The notes beneath the pieces were generated by a model that saw nothing but the letters and a program-made list of their open reading frames with translations, had not been told where the DNA came from and did not search any database. DNA of 64,000 bases from Armatimonadota bacterium (GTDB lineage Bacteria > Armatimonadota > SYMT01): assembly GCA_041690135.1 (NCBI GenBank), contig JAWLHY010000003.1:768001-832000 (forward strand), in the 5' to 3' direction. Every line of letters starts with the position of its first letter. Position 1 is the first letter of the stretch. This document shows, in pieces, positions 7,041 through 64,000 of this stretch. A program made the position numbers and the translations under genes.

Positions 7041-8215
7041 CTAAGGGGTTATGGGGAGTAACTGAGCGGTTCTGCTTTTAGCCTTCCGTAGTTCGATGGC
7101 CTTACAGGCGAGGGCCTCGTCGACGGCGGCTTTGAGTGCGCCCAATTGGGCGTGGCTCCGCACCGGCAGGCCCTGGTATTTGACATCCCGCCAGTCCGGC
7201 TCGATCCGGGATAATTCGGGACAGTAGGGTGGGAGGAAAAAGAGGTGAATGCCGGCCGCTCGCATCGCCGCCTCTTCTTGCTGCACCCGCTCGCAACGGT
7301 GGACCGTGTAGTTGTCCAGCACGTAATGCAGGGGGCGTTCCCGCCGCCAACTTTCCGGGGCCTCACTGGGTCGTCCCGCGACCGTCCACAGGAAGCCGAG
7401 GAAGACTTCGGCATCCAGGCGGCCCACCTCCTCGGGGGTAAGCCCGTGTTTTTCCGCTTGGGCGGCCAGACTCGGCGGCTGTTTGGCCCGGCTCTGGGGC
7501 AGACACGCCAGCGTCACGAAGGCGAACTCTCCGGCGGCCGGGCCGTGCGTGAAGTGCGCTCCCAGGGCATTCACCCGCCGTCCCTGCGGCGCCTCATACG
7601 GCACGCGTAGCGGGCGACCGACCGGGCCCCAACTGGCACTTGTAGGCAGGGTCATGGCAAACCCCGCCTCGTCTACGTGGGCGACGTCCCAGCACCCGGC
7701 ATCTCCCCCTTTTCCAGTTCCGTGAGTGCGGCTTGCTTCGCGGCGACCGCCTCCGGATCCTGCTTATGACGCAGATGACGCACCGTGCGACGATAGGAGA
7801 ACCGGGCGCGGCGCAACAACATGCTGAGGTGGTTGGGGGACAGCCGCAGCCCGTGGTGCTCGGCCAACCAGTCCGCCAGTTGGGCGGCGGTCCACGTGCG
7901 TTCCTGTTTTTCAATTTCCGCCCGGAGGGCGACGAGCAACTCTGGGGTCAGTTGGGAGGTTTGTCCGACGTGCGGACGATCTTCCAGTGCCTCGAAACCC
8001 CCGGTCAGAAAGCACTTGATCCAATGCCGCACCCGCACTTCACTCTGGCGGGTTAAGCGAGCGATCTGGGGGATGCTGAAGCCGGCGTCCAACAAGCGGA
8101 CCATCTCGAGCCGGTCGCGGGTGCGGGGTTTCAGACCGGGCAGGCGCGTGCGCCGGCGCAGTTCGTCATGTTGAGCCTCGGTGAGTTGGACGCGATACAA
8201 CGTGTGTCCCTCCAC
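7041..8215 (-). CDS. IS630 transposase split into HTH (8215-7673) and DDE (~7706-7041) frames, joined by a probable -1 frameshift
   Basis: Slippery A_AAG_GGG on the minus strand near 7706-7712; the -1 frame reads VDEAGF...LDNYTVH...LPPYCPELSRIE. Confidence 0.88.
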
Positions 8216-11459: not shown

Positions 11460-11588
11460 ACAGGAGCGCGGAAGAGGGAACCGATTTGGCCCGCGCCCAC
11501 ACGGGTCTCAGGAGAATACACGGAAGGGCGCGGAAGAGGGGGACCGATTTGGCCCGCGGAATACGCGGAAATGCGTGGAAGAGGGAAG

Positions 11589-11820
11589 AAGGGCTATCGG
11601 AGCGTGCCCAATACAGCGGTGAAATCTCTGCAGGAACAGCCGGTTAATTGGTGGACATTCCGATCGCCCGCCGATCCTCAACGCGAAGGTGAGCGTGGAG
11701 CCCGCGAAGGCCAGAACCAACCCCCTACTGCGCGAAGGCTTCCCCCTTCTCTGCGTCGGAGAAGTTTACGCCGCGGGGGTGGGGGATCGAGGGGGATGCG
11801 GTTACCACGGTCACCGCACC
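11589..11820 (+). repeat. REPIN/MITE-like dispersed element, copy 1 (left REP truncated)
   Basis: Colinear similarity to 62216-62487 and 63001-63273 (gggctatcgg ... tactgcgcga.ggcttcccccttc.ctgcgtcggagaagtttacgcc ... ggttacc.cggtcaccgca). Confidence 0.85.
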
Positions 11821-11853
11821 CGGTAGTGTTAACGTGCAGGGGAATTGCGGAAT

Positions 11854-16044: not shown

Positions 16045-18864
16045 TTGAAGCGCTATTCGAGAACAGAGAGCCAGAACAGTCGCCGCGCGGGACGCCGTCT
16101 CCGCCTGGGCGTACTCACGCTCCTCGCCTGTACGGCCCTGCCGACCCTGGCCCCCCTCGCCGCCCCTACCGCCGGGTCAGCCAGAACCTCCTCCAAACCC
16201 AAGGCACAGCACTCTGCGCCTGAGCGCCAAAAGCCTGAACGCCGAAAGCCTGAACGCCCACAGCCCAACAGGCCTCGCACGGGAAAACTCGCCCCTATCG
16301 CTCCCAAAGTTTCCTTCAACCGGGACATCCGCCCGATCCTCTCGGACAACTGCTTCGCCTGTCACGGCCCCGACCAGAACACGCGGATGGCCAACCTCCG
16401 GTTGGACGTGCGGGAGGAGGCGATCGCCCGGGGCGCCATCGTGCCGGGAAAGCCGAACACCAGTTCCCTGGTGGCACGGGTTCTGGCTACCGGCGCGCGG
16501 GTGATGCCGCCGGCCTCCTTCCACAAGACCCTCACCGCCGCCCAGAAGTCCCTCCTCAAGCGGTGGGTCGCGGAGGGGGCCGAGTATCAGGCCCACTGGG
16601 CGTATCTCCCGCCCCAGCGCCCGGCCGTACCGAAGCTCACCGATCCCCGCTATCCCGTCCGCAATCCGATCGACGATCTCGTTCGCTCACGCCTGAAGGC
16701 GAAGGGACTCCTCCCCTCGCCGGAAGCGGACCGCCGCACCCTCATCCGCCGCCTCTACTTCGACCTGCTCGGCATTCCCCCCACTCCCACGGAAGTCGCC
16801 CAGTTCCTCCAGGAGAGCGAAGAGGAGCCGCGGCTGACTGACTCCGGGAAAGAAGGCAGAAGGCAGAAGGCAGAAGGCAGTCTTCGCGGAACCCGGAACC
16901 CGGAACCCGGAACTCGGAACTTCGACCTTGCTTACCAGCGCCTGGTAGAGCGGGTGCTGGCGAAGCCGCAGTACGGGGAACGGATGGCGATCGGCTGGCT
17001 GGACGTGGTCCGCTACGCCGACACCATCGGTTACCACAGCGACACCCCGCGCAACGTGTGGCCCTACCGGGACTGGGTGATCCGCAGCTTCAACGAGAAC
17101 AAGCCGTTCGACCGGTTTACGATCGAGCAGGTGGCGGGTGATCTGCTCCCAGATGCGAACCAGCAGACCCGCGTCGGCTCCGCCTTCAACCGGCTGCTCC
17201 TCACGACCGAGGAGGGCGGCGCGCAGCCGAAGGACTACGAGGCCCGGATGCTGACCGACCGGGTAAGGGCGATCGGGGCCACCTGGTTGGGCCAAACCAC
17301 CGGCTGCGCCCAGTGCCACGACCACAAGTTCGACCCGTTCACCGCGCGCGACTTCTACTCGCTGGGCGCCTTCTTCGCCGATATCCAGGAGCCGATCATC
17401 GGCCGGCGCGAGGACGGCATGCTGGTGATCACCGCCGAGGAGGAGCAGCGCCTGGCGAAGCTGGACGCCGAGCTGGCCGAGGCGCGGAAGTTCCTGCCCC
17501 AGCTCCAGGCGGCCCAGCCGAAGTGGGAAGCGGAAGTGCAGGCCCAGGGCTTCGCGCTGCCGGAGCTGGCGGCGGGCTCGAAGGCGCCCGAGGCGGAGAA
17601 GAACCGCGCGCGGCAGGTCGTGGCGGCCCTCAAGAAAGCGGAGAAGGCGCGGAACGGCCGGGACCGGGACCTCATCGCCACCTATTTCCGGGACCGGGCC
17701 GGGCACCCGTTCCAGGCCGAAGTGGCCGCCCTGGCGAAGGCCGAGAAGGCCCGCGGCGACTACTATGCGTCGCTGGCAAAGTGCCTGGTCAGCACCAGCA
17801 GCCCCAGCAAGCGGACCGTACGCATCCTCCCGCGCGGCAACTGGCAGGACGAAAGCGGCCCGGTGGTGAAGCCGGCCCTGCCGCACTACCTGCCGCAGCC
17901 AAAGATCGAGGGGCGGGAACTAACGCGCCTCGATCTGGCGCGGTGGCTTGTTTCCCGCGAGAACCCGCTCACCGCGCGCACGGTGATGAACCGGCTCTGG
18001 AAACAGTTCTTTGGGACCGGCCTGAGCAAGGTGCTGGACGACCTGGGGGCGCAGGGCGAGCCGCCGGTGAACCCCGAGCTGCTGGACTGGCTCGCGTGCG
18101 AGTTCATGGACAGCGGCTGGGACATGAAGCACATGGTCCGCACCATCGTCACCAGCGCCACCTATCGGCAGGCCTCCACCGCCCGTCCGGAGCTCTTGGC
18201 GGCCGATCCTGACAACCGGGAGCTGGCGCGGCAGAGCGCCTTCCGCCTGGACGCGGAGCTGGTCCGGGATAACGCCCTGGCCGTTTCCGGGCTGCTCGTC
18301 CCGAAGATCGGTGGGCCCAGCGTCAAGCCGTACCAGCCCGCCGGCTACTGGGAGAACCTGAACTTCCCCGTCCGCGAGTACGTGCCGGACACGGGCGAGA
18401 GCCAGTACCGCCGCGGGCTCTACACCTGGTGGCAGCGCTCGTTTCTCCACCCGAGCATGCTCGCGTTCGACGCGCCCAGCCGCGAGGAGTGTGCCGCCGA
18501 GCGCAGCCGCTCCAACATCCCGCAGCAGGCGCTGGTGCTGCTCAACGACCCCACCTACGTGGAGGCCGCTCGGGCCTTCGCGGCCCGGGTCCTCCGCGAG
18601 TGCCGGGGGCCGGAAGACCAGCGGTTCACCTGGGCCTGGCAGCAGGCCCTCCAGCGGAACCCGCGCCCCGCCGAGCTCCGGACGGTCCGGGGCCTCCTGA
18701 ACCAGCACCTGGCCGCCTACCGCGCCGACCCCAAGGCGGCCGGAGAATTGCTCAAGGTCGGTTTCGCTCCCTCACCGGAAGGCCTCGACCCGGCGGAGCT
18801 CGCCGCGTGGACGCACGTGGCCCGCGTGTTGCTGAACCTGCATGAAGCGATTACACGCCCGTAA
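16045..18864 (+). CDS. PSCyt1 + DUF1549 + DUF1553 (PSD1) protein, paralog A
   Basis: FNRDIRPILSDNCFACHG, CAQCHDHKFDP, PELLDWLA..GWD, RRGLYTWW; start approximate. Confidence 0.92.
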   Translation: MKRYSRTESQNSRRAGRRLRLGVLTLLACTALPTLAPLAAPTAGSARTSSKPKAQHSAPERQKPERRKPERPQPNRPRTGKLAPIAPKVSFNRDIRPILSDNCFACHGPDQNTRMANLRLDVREEAIARGAIVPGKPNTSSLVARVLATGARVMPPASFHKTLTAAQKSLLKRWVAEGAEYQAHWAYLPPQRPAVPKLTDPRYPVRNPIDDLVRSRLKAKGLLPSPEADRRTLIRRLYFDLLGIPPTPTEVAQFLQESEEEPRLTDSGKEGRRQKAEGSLRGTRNPEPGTRNFDLAYQRLVERVLAKPQYGERMAIGWLDVVRYADTIGYHSDTPRNVWPYRDWVIRSFNENKPFDRFTIEQVAGDLLPDANQQTRVGSAFNRLLLTTEEGGAQPKDYEARMLTDRVRAIGATWLGQTTGCAQCHDHKFDPFTARDFYSLGAFFADIQEPIIGRREDGMLVITAEEEQRLAKLDAELAEARKFLPQLQAAQPKWEAEVQAQGFALPELAAGSKAPEAEKNRARQVVAALKKAEKARNGRDRDLIATYFRDRAGHPFQAEVAALAKAEKARGDYYASLAKCLVSTSSPSKRTVRILPRGNWQDESGPVVKPALPHYLPQPKIEGRELTRLDLARWLVSRENPLTARTVMNRLWKQFFGTGLSKVLDDLGAQGEPPVNPELLDWLACEFMDSGWDMKHMVRTIVTSATYRQASTARPELLAADPDNRELARQSAFRLDAELVRDNALAVSGLLVPKIGGPSVKPYQPAGYWENLNFPVREYVPDTGESQYRRGLYTWWQRSFLHPSMLAFDAPSREECAAERSRSNIPQQALVLLNDPTYVEAARAFAARVLRECRGPEDQRFTWAWQQALQRNPRPAELRTVRGLLNQHLAAYRADPKAAGELLKVGFAPSPEGLDPAELAAWTHVARVLLNLHEAITRP

Positions 18865-61119: not shown

Positions 61120-61770
61120 GGTACGTGATGCGTGTTGCGTAATGCGTGAGGCTTGCGTGCGTGGCGGGTGCGGGGGGCAGGGATTTCGCCTCGAACGTGG
61201 GGAGGCGTGAGGCGTGAAACGTAAGGCGTGAGGCGTGAGGTCTGGGGCAGGGGCGGGGTTGGTTTGGCATGGGTGGGTTCTGGGGTGTGAGGCGTGGGGT
61301 CGGGTGCTGGGTGGCTGCATAGGGCAGGATGAGTGCCTCGAGCGCATGGAGACGTGATGCGTGAGGTCTAGACACAGGAGGGGGGCGGGGGCATGGAGTG
61401 GTGGGGTGATCAGAGGGTGCGCTGCGCGGGCCAACACGAAATCGCGAAAGCCCATACGGGCCCGTAGGGAGCGAAATCACGAAAGGGAACGGTCGAGGTG
61501 GCTGCGATGGGGCTTCCTGACACGGAGGAGCCGGAGGCGATGGAGGGACACGTGGGCGGATCCGCGACTGAAGGGGATGCGGTGAATGGTGCAGGATGAG
61601 GCCGGGGCAAGCGAGCGTTGCACGTTTTTGCACGTACTTGCACTCCTGGGGGCTGATTTCTGGAGGTGCGAGGTGAGAAGGGCGAAGTGCGAGTTGCCCA
61701 TGGCCTTCTGCCCACTGCCTCCTGCCTTCTGCGCCCGGGTTGGACGAATCTGGACGGTTTTGGACATGGG
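61120..61770. repeat. Non-coding region rich in heptamer and 10-bp phased repeats
   Basis: gcgtga(g/t) runs, gccttct runs, tgcacg-N4 x3, tggacg-N4 x3. Confidence 0.7.
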
Positions 61771-62215
61771 AAGAAAAATCTGGGGCCTCCTTCGCGGTAC
61801 TGGCATGAGGAACCCCTTCCGGCGGCTGGCACTGCGGGGTGCCTGGTCGCCGTGGCTCCCAACCTCCCAATAGTCCGGAGCGGTGGGAATCTCAACCCCA
61901 ATTTTGGAAATTAGTTCCAACTAATGTTTGCGGAGGGTGGGGGGGAGTTGCGGACCCGTTTTGCACGCCTGCCACGAACCTGTTTCTCCGCGCAGGTCAG
62001 TGAGGCTTGCCGGAGTGCCGGCGCTTGCGCGGCCTCCACTTGGTGTACCGTACCTGCCCAGTAGCTTGCACGCACCTCTTGGCGGTCGGATTTGGTGCGT
62101 GGAGCAAGGATTGTGTACTGGGCTTCCGAGGGGCGTGGGGATCCATGTCGGCGGCCGCTCACCTTGACGGCACGCAACGTGGTGCGGGTTCAAGGACCCG
62201 GCTCGGTTTGTCCGT

Positions 62216-62487
62216 GTGACCTCATCCCCAACCCCTTCTCCGACACAGAGAAGGGGCTATCGGCGTGAACCCAGTACGACGCCGTACTTTCCGCAGAAGC
62301 CACCGGTCACTTTGGCCGACATTCTGATCGCCCACCAAGCCCCCACACGACCGTGATCGTCGAGCCCGTGAAGACCAGAGCCATCCCTGTACTGCGCGAG
62401 GGCTTCCCCCTTCCCTGCGTCGGAGAAGTTTACGCCCCGCGGGAGTGGGGGACCGAGGGGGATGAGGTTACCGCGGTCACCGCAGCC
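62216..62487 (+). repeat. REPIN/MITE-like element, copy 2
   Basis: Inverted REP pair gtgacctcatcccc..ccccttctccgacacagagaagggg / ccccttccctgcgtcggagaag..ggggatgaggttac. Confidence 0.85.
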
Positions 62488-62644
62488 GTTAGTATTGTCG
62501 CACTCCAAGCCTTGCAGCACCCTGGTAGACCGCTGGATGCGTTGGCCACGGCGGTCCACCCCCACGTGCGTGGGGAGTAATGCTTCGTCTCACCCGTGGG
62601 GGCGCAGCTACGTTGCTCCGTCCTCTTGCCCCAGGGTGCTACCG

Positions 62645-62901
62645 TGGGGTCGCCCCCAGCCCTTGCTTTGGGCCACCGCCCTCCCGCGTGTTAAGCCTCC
62701 GCTCGGCCTTTCACGCTCCCTGCCCGCCAGCGGGCGCCCGTCGCTAGCGGCCGGCTCCGGCGTGCAGCCCAAGACCTGGGCTCCGCGCTGCGGACGGGCG
62801 CTTGGCCTAGTCGTGGCGTGGACGGGCGGCGACCCGACAGCTTCGAGCTATCCCCCCGTCCGGGGAGATCACATGGGCCCGGCGCTGCCGGGCTACGGTT
62901 T
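62645..62901 (-). ncRNA. Candidate structured ncRNA, copy 1
   Basis: Multiple hairpins, a compensatory change versus copy 2, and mismatches that become G-U on the minus strand. Confidence 0.4.
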
Positions 62902-63000
62902 CCGTTCACCCCCATGTGCGTGGGGACCCATTTCCGTGGTCGTTCACCTTGAGGGCACGCAACGGGGTGCGGGTTCAAGGTCTCGATCCGGTTTGGCCGT

Positions 63001-63273
63001 GTGACCTCACCCCAACCCCTCTCCGACGCAGAGAGGGGCTATCGGTGTGTGCCCAAGCCGACGGTGCATTTTCCAGAGATGCCGTCGGCTACGACTGCCG
63101 ACGTCCTGAACTTCCACCAAGCCGCAGCGCAACCGTGACCGTGACCGTGGAGTCTGCGAAGATCAACACCAGTCCTCTACTGCGCGAGGGCTTCCCCCTT
63201 CTCTGCGTCGGAGAAGTTTACGCCCCGCGAGGGTGGGGGACCGAGGGGGATGAGGTTACCGCGGTCACCGCAC
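63001..63273 (+). repeat. REPIN/MITE-like element, copy 3
   Basis: Same architecture as 62216-62487. Confidence 0.85.
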
Positions 63274-63429
63274 TGGTGGACGATGACGTGCCAGCGCCTT
63301 CAGAATCCGGGTGGAACGCTGGTTGTCGTGCCGCAGTTCATCCCCACGTACTTGGGGACAGTTCGCGACTCCCGGGTTGAAGCGTAGGCATAGCCACTTT
63401 AGGTTGGTCCGCTCCCACTACCACTATCA

Positions 63430-63683
63430 TGGGGTCGCCCCCAGCCCTTGCCTTGGGCCGCCGCCCTCACGCGTGTTGGGCCTGCGCTCGCCCTTTCACG
63501 CGCCACCCCTCGGGGGTCCCCGGCGCTAACGGGCGGCTTCGGCGTGCAGCCCAGGACCTGGGCTCCGTGCTGCGACCGGGCACTGGAACCACGCCGGGCG
63601 TGGACGGGCGGCGACCCGGCGTCTTCGAGCTATCCCCCCGTCCGGGGAGATCACAAGGGCCCGGCGTTGCCGGGCTTTGGTTT
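63430..63683 (-). ncRNA. Candidate structured ncRNA, copy 2
   Basis: As copy 1; abuts the terminal repeat of the CRISPR array. Confidence 0.4.
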
Positions 63684-64000
63684 CCGTCCATCCCCACGTG
63701 CGTGGGGACAACTGGGCTCTGCTGGAAGCGTTCGCTGAGACGCCCGGTCCACCGCCACGTGCGTGGGGAAAACATCGGCTGCCGAGATGATGATCTCCAT
63801 GTGTGCGGTCCACCCCCACGTGCGTGGGGATAAGAGCGCCTTCGGGAGTTGGCGCGCTCCGGCGAGCGGTTCACCCCCACGTGCGTGGGGACAAGGCCGT
63901 TGCGGATAAGGCCCGTGTCCAGGCCCACGGTTCACCCCCACGTGCGTGGGGACAAGGACGGTAACACCGAGGGTGAGGCGTACGACGACGGTTCACCCCC
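63684..64000 (-). CRISPR. Type I-E-like CRISPR array, trailer end (continues beyond the window)
   Basis: 29-bp repeat CGGTTCACCCCCACGTGCGTGGGGACAAG at 63684, 63745, 63806, 63867, 63928, 63989 (partial); 32-bp spacers; degenerate on the left. The reverse complement ends in AACCG like I-E repeats. Confidence 0.96.

Follow-up and report, generated by a model that had tools for sequence, protein, structure and literature searches.

Dispersed intergenic repeats such as ERIC, BOX and Correia/NEMIS are co-transcribed with their neighbours and fold as RNA; they measure about 100-150 nucleotides (nt), have a simple architecture and occur in phyla other than the one treated here. The HEARO RNAs and the omega RNAs of IscB and TnpB are large, multi-copy structured RNAs carried on mobile elements, whose function was obscure when they were first described, and Rfam includes the HEARO and IS605-orfB motifs. 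[quoted passage not shown] Here we describe element B, a structured repeat present in two copies of ~260 nt (B1 and B2) near the end of a 64,000-nt stretch from an Armatimonadota bacterium (NCBI GenBank assembly GCA_041690135.1, contig JAWLHY010000003.1, positions 768,001 to 832,000 of the forward strand). This whole stretch, termed the window, corresponds to C3:768001-832000 of the 25-contig draft genome G000.

Element B belongs to a dispersed family of folded, intergenic repeats for which no description was found in the literature. Our analysis favours, as the probable account of its presence in a CRISPR locus, the landing of a structured, REPIN-like and non-autonomous repeat at the border between a repeat and a spacer, with later copying of this repeat together with the arrays; its array copies are probably transcribed and excised by Cas6e as a by-product.

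The trailer of array 1 and the CRISPR locus

The final 1.4 kb of the window constitute the old end (trailer) of a type I-E CRISPR array, in which the two copies of B each occupy a 'spacer' position between degenerate type I-E repeats. The trailer comprises the following features, given in window coordinates, with core scores from the covariance model R1 described below.

About 62120-62144: very degenerate repeat remnant after A1
62145-62553, minus strand: A1, a copy of element A, the second kind of giant 'spacer' (80% identity with A2 over ~345 nt)
62554-62581, minus strand: degenerate type I-E CRISPR repeat
62582-62638, minus strand: tail of B1, homologous to the B4 tail; may hold a 3' extension of the element and an old-spacer remnant
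62639-62902, minus strand: B1, a copy of element B (nhmmer E 1.2e-75; core 62652-62839, 143.1 bits)
62904-62931, minus strand: degenerate CRISPR repeat at the 5' end of B1
62932-63335, minus strand: A2, a copy of element A, between both B copies
63336-63361, minus strand: degenerate CRISPR repeat with 3 substitutions
63362-63423, minus strand: tail of B2, whose repeat-proximal 19 nt recur in the B3 tail of array 2
63424-63684, minus strand: B2, a copy of element B (nhmmer E 1.2e-69; core 63437-63621, 129.3 bits)
63686-63712, minus strand: CRISPR repeat at the 5' end of B2
63747-64000, minus strand: beginning, at its old end, of the regular part of array 1 (61-nt period), continuing past the window to C3:834453

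The minus-strand reading of the repeat terminates in ...GGGGGTGAACCG, which we take to be the type I-E repeat orientation, as in Escherichia coli and Thermus. The cas genes are also located on the minus strand and the mutated repeats sit at the low-coordinate ends of the arrays. The reading direction of the arrays is thus that of the minus strand, which places the elements described here in the trailer. The order in this sense is repeat 63686-63712, B2 and its tail, repeat 63336-63361, A2 (~404 nt), repeat 62904-62931, B1 and its tail, repeat 62554-62581, A1 and the very degenerate remnant. The two B copies display 83.8% identity across 265 nt by BLAST, with direct repeats 62639-62719/63424-63504 at 88% and 62732-62927/63514-63709 at 85%, and the first-pass annotation, which had reported two copies bracketed by CRISPR repeats, proved exact to the base. 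Each copy lies between two direct repeats in the orientation of the array, as a spacer in a CRISPR RNA (crRNA) does, and the repeat meets the 5' end of B directly, leaving no spacer remnant (...GTGAAC/GGAAACC..., the slash marking the junction). The hairpins of the flanking repeats still hold 5-6 pairs. The gaps between the bracketing repeats measure 322-327, 404-409 and 324-327 nt, against a normal array period of 61 nt. In length, therefore, neither element resembles a spacer, B extending over 305-330 nt and A over ~404-410 nt where the spacers of the array have 32-33 nt.

A fuzzy scan of C3:825000-860000 identified 105 repeats, all with period 61, in three arrays.

C3:830554-834453: array 1, 49 repeats
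C3:836566-838903: array 2, 34 repeats and one with an indel at 836231-836259
C3:848464-850151: array 3, 22 repeats

The minus-strand genes between the arrays, assigned with Pfam, encode a WYL/WCX regulator, cas3, cse1, cse2, cas7, cas5 and cas6e (L001 6949-7617), and are followed on the same strand by array 2, the genes cas1 and cas2 and finally array 1. Elements of kinds A and B terminate all three arrays of the locus. Array 2 likewise ends with two further B copies, B3 and B4, each between repeats, and array 3 ends with two A copies. All four array copies of B point in the same direction as the array. B1 resembles B4 and B2 resembles B3, tails included; thus, the trailer of arrays 1 and 2 is one inherited structure. 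Array 2 with B3 and B4 is located inside the cas operon, between cas6e and cas1 (C3:836231-839617), and the arrays are almost leaderless, with ~45 nt from cas6e to the first repeat and ~56 nt from cas2 to array 1.

Element A (~405 nt) is represented by four full copies, all within the CRISPR locus (A1, A2 and those at L001 16010-16899), with a partial copy at window 11587-11830. In A1 two inverted arms of 22 nt (62235-62256/62407-62428), ~150 nt apart, form a long hairpin. The element also holds a short hairpin motif, TCCCCCACCC.CGCGGGGCGTAAAC, which is loosely CRISPR-repeat-like and dispersed in the genome.

Fold, distribution and insertion of element B

Read on the minus strand, B1 folds into a hairpin P1, a hairpin P2 with a conserved U.G pair and a 12-base-pair (bp) long-range helix that closes a multi-helix core. 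The core was represented by the covariance model R1 (178 positions), with 122 aligned copies: 16 from G000, seven from G006, one from G004 and 98 from loci of a genome collection. Standard pairs occupy 97.5% of the pair cells in this alignment, whose fitting to the model favours that figure. Shuffling gives 75.7%, with none of 500 shuffles as high as the observed value, and sliding the partners gives 34-48%; the pairing picture is unchanged when 21 copies are aligned plainly with MAFFT. Both-sided changes affect 17 of the 22 pairs, and the 12-bp helix displays up to six pair types per position. For hairpin P2, a plain MAFFT alignment of 39 copies is 94.6% paired versus 41-66% for slid partners, and its second pair is U.G in 36 of these 39 copies, the alignment not being fitted to the model. 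The same pair is present in 71 of the 72 copies located by pattern, a pattern that does not locate the other 50 of the 122. The core helices contain 60 G.U/U.G cells and 15 A-C/C-A cells. The G.U excess and the near-invariant U.G pair thus indicate that the fold is read on the minus strand.

The structural details proposed in the first-pass annotation from B1 and B2 are all found in the sequence. The change from CGGCC (62704)/GGCCG (62749) to CGCCC (63489)/GGGCG (63531) is compensatory, the three further hairpins named there are present, and the 12-bp helix 62670-62681/62824-62835 carries two C-A/A-C mismatches on the plus strand that become G.U on the minus strand. Rfam 15 yielded no gathering-score match in the window, no meaningful match in 62000-63800 with E relaxed to 10 and no match at E up to 0.01 in five loci with other B subtypes. 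This null result, the strong covariation across the larger alignment and the excess of G.U cells support the claim that the minus strand carries a structured, RNA-like element without earlier description. A coding role was rejected, as variable hairpins and insertions of 19-53 nt with lengths not divisible by three argue against an open reading frame (ORF); in one subtype the 3' flank seems to contain a short ORF, likewise discarded because one of four copies lacks its start codon.

The primary sequence of the family is loose, with a median pairwise identity of 60%, a nearest-neighbour median of 85% and only 8 of 7381 pairs above 95%, yet 23 of the 124 unpaired columns are at least 98% conserved. 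This combination points to a constraint acting on nearly every copy or copy lineage, and it is unlike the remains of a recent burst followed by neutral decay.

The genome contains 15-17 copies of B by BLAST and nhmmer (17 by nhmmer), distributed over C2, C5, C6, C7, C11 and the CRISPR locus. Model R1 matches 16 stretches in G000 (12 of them outside arrays), at least 137 in G005 (a lower bound, 150 candidates having been scored), eight in G006 and one in G004. No match to the model was obtained in G001-G003, three other genomes of the same bacterial family, or in 144 sampled genomes from other families of the phylum. An exact pattern of the conserved motifs is found in 91 stretches of the genome collection; among the 80 matches listed, 79 are from Armatimonadota, all of them from one metagenome-assembled genome, and the remaining one, from Chloroflexota (L119), was not confirmed by the covariance model. 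The same pattern matches 10 metagenome contigs, eight of which are confirmed by the model.

The copies of B are intergenic in position and the genes beside them are functionally unrelated, comprising a PfkB kinase, PSD/PSCyt proteins, a PP2C phosphatase and an amidohydrolase, as well as an ankyrin protein, an MmeI-like enzyme and DUF4268, AbiJ and GIY-YIG proteins. Four sites in G000 hold head-to-head pairs of two subtypes, and this arrangement recurs in all 21 two-copy loci of the genome collection, reproducing the inverted doublet of REPINs. Single copies in the loci of that collection are evenly oriented with respect to the roughly called flanking genes (12, 12, 8 and 12, with 12 undecided). 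A cis-regulatory leader was considered and rejected, the neighbouring genes being unrelated and the orientation towards them even.

Comparison of orthologous sites reveals that B is an insertion. The gap between NIF3 and pfkB measures 1136 nt in G000, where it contains a B doublet, and 151 nt in G005, where it gives no model match; the G005 orthologues of the two G000 proteins are 71% and 67% identical. In G006 a putative ORF lies 35 nt upstream of the pfkB orthologue (65% identity) and the locus has no model match. The converse site involves two co-directional operon genes, separated in G005 by a gap of 506 nt with one B, whose G000 orthologues are 22 nt apart. Presence/absence at orthologous sites was thus seen in both of the two syntenic comparisons; orthologue queries for two more filled sites found no orthologue. 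Closely related doublets have ~830 nt in common, their ends being located only roughly.

Outside the locus described above, no link of the family with CRISPR is found. None of the B-holding loci, 80 from the genome collection, 10 from metagenomes and those of G006, contains the core of the CRISPR repeat, and a Hamming scan for the repeat outside the CRISPR locus returned 2 chance-like matches only. The B-richest genome, G005, has no Cse1 and no repeat above control level. Conversely, G001 and G002 possess a type I-E system with arrays and lack B. Thus the description of B as 'CRISPR-linked' in the first-pass annotation does not extend to the family, as 12 of 16 genome matches lie outside arrays and the at least 137 copies of G005 coexist with neither Cse1 nor such a repeat. 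A possible half-repeat upstream of the C2:552340 copy was dismissed as too faint. At L155 1501-1527 (G006:C297), beside a short-ORF region, a single perfect I-E repeat stands outside any array.

Some B copies border defence genes. At C2:549188-552639 two copies in direct orientation flank a 3-kb block encoding DUF4268, AbiJ-type and GIY-YIG proteins, and a partial copy on C6 adjoins an MmeI-like restriction-modification gene. The copy at C2:552340 (L002 9337-9650) contains an inserted GC-rich hairpin of ~19 nt, and snippets resembling it are found in tandem within A4 (L001 about 16100-16160). The flank of the trailer is a pile of different repeat families, including one located just past the old end of the array.

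61930-62090, no strand assigned: dispersed repeat of ~150 nt (BLAST)

This repeat has 57 BLAST matches in the genome at E<=1e-5, 35 of them at least 80 nt long. Runs of a short GCGTGA(G/T)-type repeat are found at window 61120-61400, at L005 about 7250-7520 and adjoining the B doublet between NIF3 and pfkB; in G005 an analogous GCAGGTT-type run lies beside its copies.

Origin of the array copies

B is one of an undescribed family of non-coding, multi-helix repeats of 250-300 nt, which behave as mobile but non-autonomous DNA in one family of the soil phylum Armatimonadota. Their usual unit is a head-to-head doublet of two subtypes, REPIN-like and ten times larger. Selection acts on the conserved fold of one strand, presumably because the single-stranded form (RNA, possibly single-stranded DNA) is recognised by a mobilising or binding factor. 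In the proposed mechanism, one copy would have come to sit precisely where a repeat meets a spacer, in the oldest part of an ancestral I-E array, after which the repeat-element unit would have been duplicated in tandem, and again as the arrays multiplied, with B1-B4 as the outcome, 305-330-nt 'spacers' beside the second captured element A. Since the array copies lie in sense, they are expected in the precursor crRNA (pre-crRNA) and would be released from it by Cas6e at the flanking repeats, as by-products and not as guides. A single capture with duplication of unit and arrays is the most economical account. Uptake of mobile DNA by the arrays of this bacterial family is seen in G002, where an IS4-type element with a 485-residue transposase occupies a 1554-nt gap between repeats in mid-array (L170 481-2034; G002:C468).

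Several observations weigh against this account. No terminal inverted repeats or clear target-site duplication are definable, the ends of the doublets being only roughly placed, and no transposase adjoins any copy of B. Genes for Y1 (HUH) transposases occur in genomes with and without B, G001 and G002 included among the latter. With 8 of 7381 copy pairs above 95% identity, the family gives no sign of a recent burst, and its near-universal column conservation suits a set of RNAs that are each useful no less than it suits selfish DNA. The four array copies among 16 exceed what chance insertion predicts, an excess that one capture followed by duplication would explain, and the junction falls exactly at the repeat/spacer boundary, a precision that ordinary insertion does not explain. 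Finally, the conserved columns have been spared as the array copies diverged. Between B1 and B4 there are 30 substitutions, none in the 38 conserved unpaired columns and touching 2 of the 22 pairs. B1 and B2 differ by 36 substitutions, 3 of them in conserved columns, with one compensatory pair and no pair disrupted; this test is circular in part, since the array copies belong to the family on which the column classes were defined. The exact junction, the fraction of copies in arrays and this pattern of divergence keep a functional reading alive.

One functional reading takes the copies of B as individually useful RNA genes or modules (protein binding, ribozyme or scaffold), the I-E array of this genome having been co-opted as a cassette that would express four of them, with trimming by Cas6e to defined ends. 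Motifs and pairing are kept in nearly all 122 copies despite the low median identity, one U.G pair is near-invariant, the four array copies lie in sense with repeats abutting their 5' ends exactly, and the divergence of B1 from B4 avoids conserved columns. We nevertheless consider it unlikely. Genera of a single family differ in copy number between 0 and at least 137, sites are filled or empty in both syntenic comparisons, the orientation to genes is random and no conserved promoter was seen upstream of single copies. In addition, relatives with I-E arrays lack B and the B-richest genome lacks the system. Less likely again is a bolder form of this idea, by which B would be a new class of large structured RNA, functional in more than 100 copies per genome, and the I-E array and Cas6e would have been recruited here to express and trim four of them. 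It would make this a natural CRISPR array that matures cargo other than crRNA, possibly in the service of a mobile system, RNA-guided or RNA-scaffolded, in which two divergent RNAs read into the flanks of the doublet.

The giant 'spacers' could instead be regulatory DNA of the cas locus (promoters, terminators or duplicated pieces of leader) built from a genomic repeat and kept to drive or insulate cas1-cas2 and the arrays. The position of array 2, with B3 and B4, between cas6e and cas1 would suit this role, as would one sigma-70-like match in the B4 tail upstream of cas1 (1 found, 0.3 expected). This match, the only one of the region, lies just before the last repeat and cas1 (L001 4254-4283, minus strand). 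Window positions 61500-64000 revealed no promoter- or terminator-like sites by a promoter consensus that may not suit the phylum, and B1, B2 and both A copies of the window lie downstream of array 1, with no cas gene after them. A regulatory role is judged improbable.

The first-pass annotation had interpreted B as a dedicated CRISPR-associated non-coding RNA, composed of a conserved scaffold and a variable guide, an explanation now largely refuted and given very little credence. Its appeal lay in the bracketing repeats and in the ~65-nt segments that follow the conserved block. These segments do differ between the two window copies, as had been noted, but they are not private to each copy, since both have a homologue in array 2. 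B1 with its tail is 79% identical over 324-349 nt to the copy at C3:836259-836589, the B2 tail has its first 19 nt repeated at C3:836609, and a tail of the B2/B3 type has a homologue even in the non-array copy C2:552340. Searches of the segments against the host, phage and plasmids, as suggested at the time, gave nothing further in the genome and no match in either the phage or the plasmid collections. Nor is an anti-repeat apparent, the longest complementarity of B or its tails to the repeat being 8 nt. Among candidate partners, TnpB (PF07282) is found in none of four B-holding genomes, IS110 is absent from G000 and reverse transcriptase from G005, while the IscB-type RRXRR domain (PF14239) gave no match in five genomes, a search made uninformative by a control that was silent everywhere. 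Most copies, moreover, are not near a CRISPR locus. An assembly artefact, in which repeats of a 25-contig draft were misjoined to CRISPR repeats, is scarcely credible, because the same pattern recurs at three arrays on a 1-Mb contig with consistent junctions and with copies, 79-91% identical, that are divergent enough for unique assembly.

Capture of a mobile structured repeat and its duplication with the arrays thus remains the preferred explanation. The locus then offers a natural test of how Cas6e and Cascade handle a structured 'spacer' of 320 nt and of how non-spacer DNA enters at repeat/spacer junctions, with elements exactly in spacer positions, intact flanking repeats, sense orientation and, in one case, a location inside the cas operon.

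Comparison with known systems

At least 137 copies in one genome, near-perfect pairing and invariant motifs at a median identity of 60%, and the lack of an Rfam entry give the B family a position that can be likened to that of the HEARO RNAs before the discovery of their effector. B differs from HEARO and omega RNAs in having no Rfam match, no adjacent ORF and no hypervariable guide, and TnpB is missing from the four B-holding genomes searched; RRXRR was not found either, but with a silent control. B is longer and more intricate than ERIC, BOX and Correia/NEMIS, and larger and more intricate than REP-type repeats; it has no sequence or Rfam relation to the ERIC, BOX and Correia/NEMIS repeats. 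In CreTA-type modules creA consists of degenerate repeats around a spacer-sized pseudo-spacer that matches a nearby promoter in part, with a gene for an RNA toxin alongside, whereas B measures 305-330 nt and its tails have no second match in the genome. The IS4-type element of G002 is similar in being mobile DNA tolerated within an I-E array of the same bacterial family, but it is an autonomous insertion sequence with a transposase, while B has no ORF.

In common with REPINs, B is extragenic, non-coding and high in copy number, has an inverted doublet as its unit, is predicted to fold as single-stranded DNA or mRNA and forms a long-lived, diverged population (PMC3116915). In contrast with the 20-40-nt palindrome of a REP, each half of a B doublet is a 250-300-nt multi-helix fold with invariant junction motifs, and the halves are different subtypes without mutual pairing. 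The search for a cognate Y1 transposase beside the copies of B found none; Y1_Tnp matches adjoin none of the listed copies and are not restricted to B-holding genomes, so that the association that characterises RAYTs is not observed. With HqIRS37, B has in common the state of a non-autonomous passenger repeat between two direct repeats (PMC3119063). HqIRS37 splits a spacer that can be rebuilt on its removal (PMC3119063), while B starts exactly at the end of a repeat and has four copies, shared between two arrays, at the oldest end and accompanied by a second element. B lacks the defining features of REP/RAYT systems and of guide RNAs; its behaviour is closest to that of REPINs and its situation in the array closest to that of the Haloquadratum spacer MITE.

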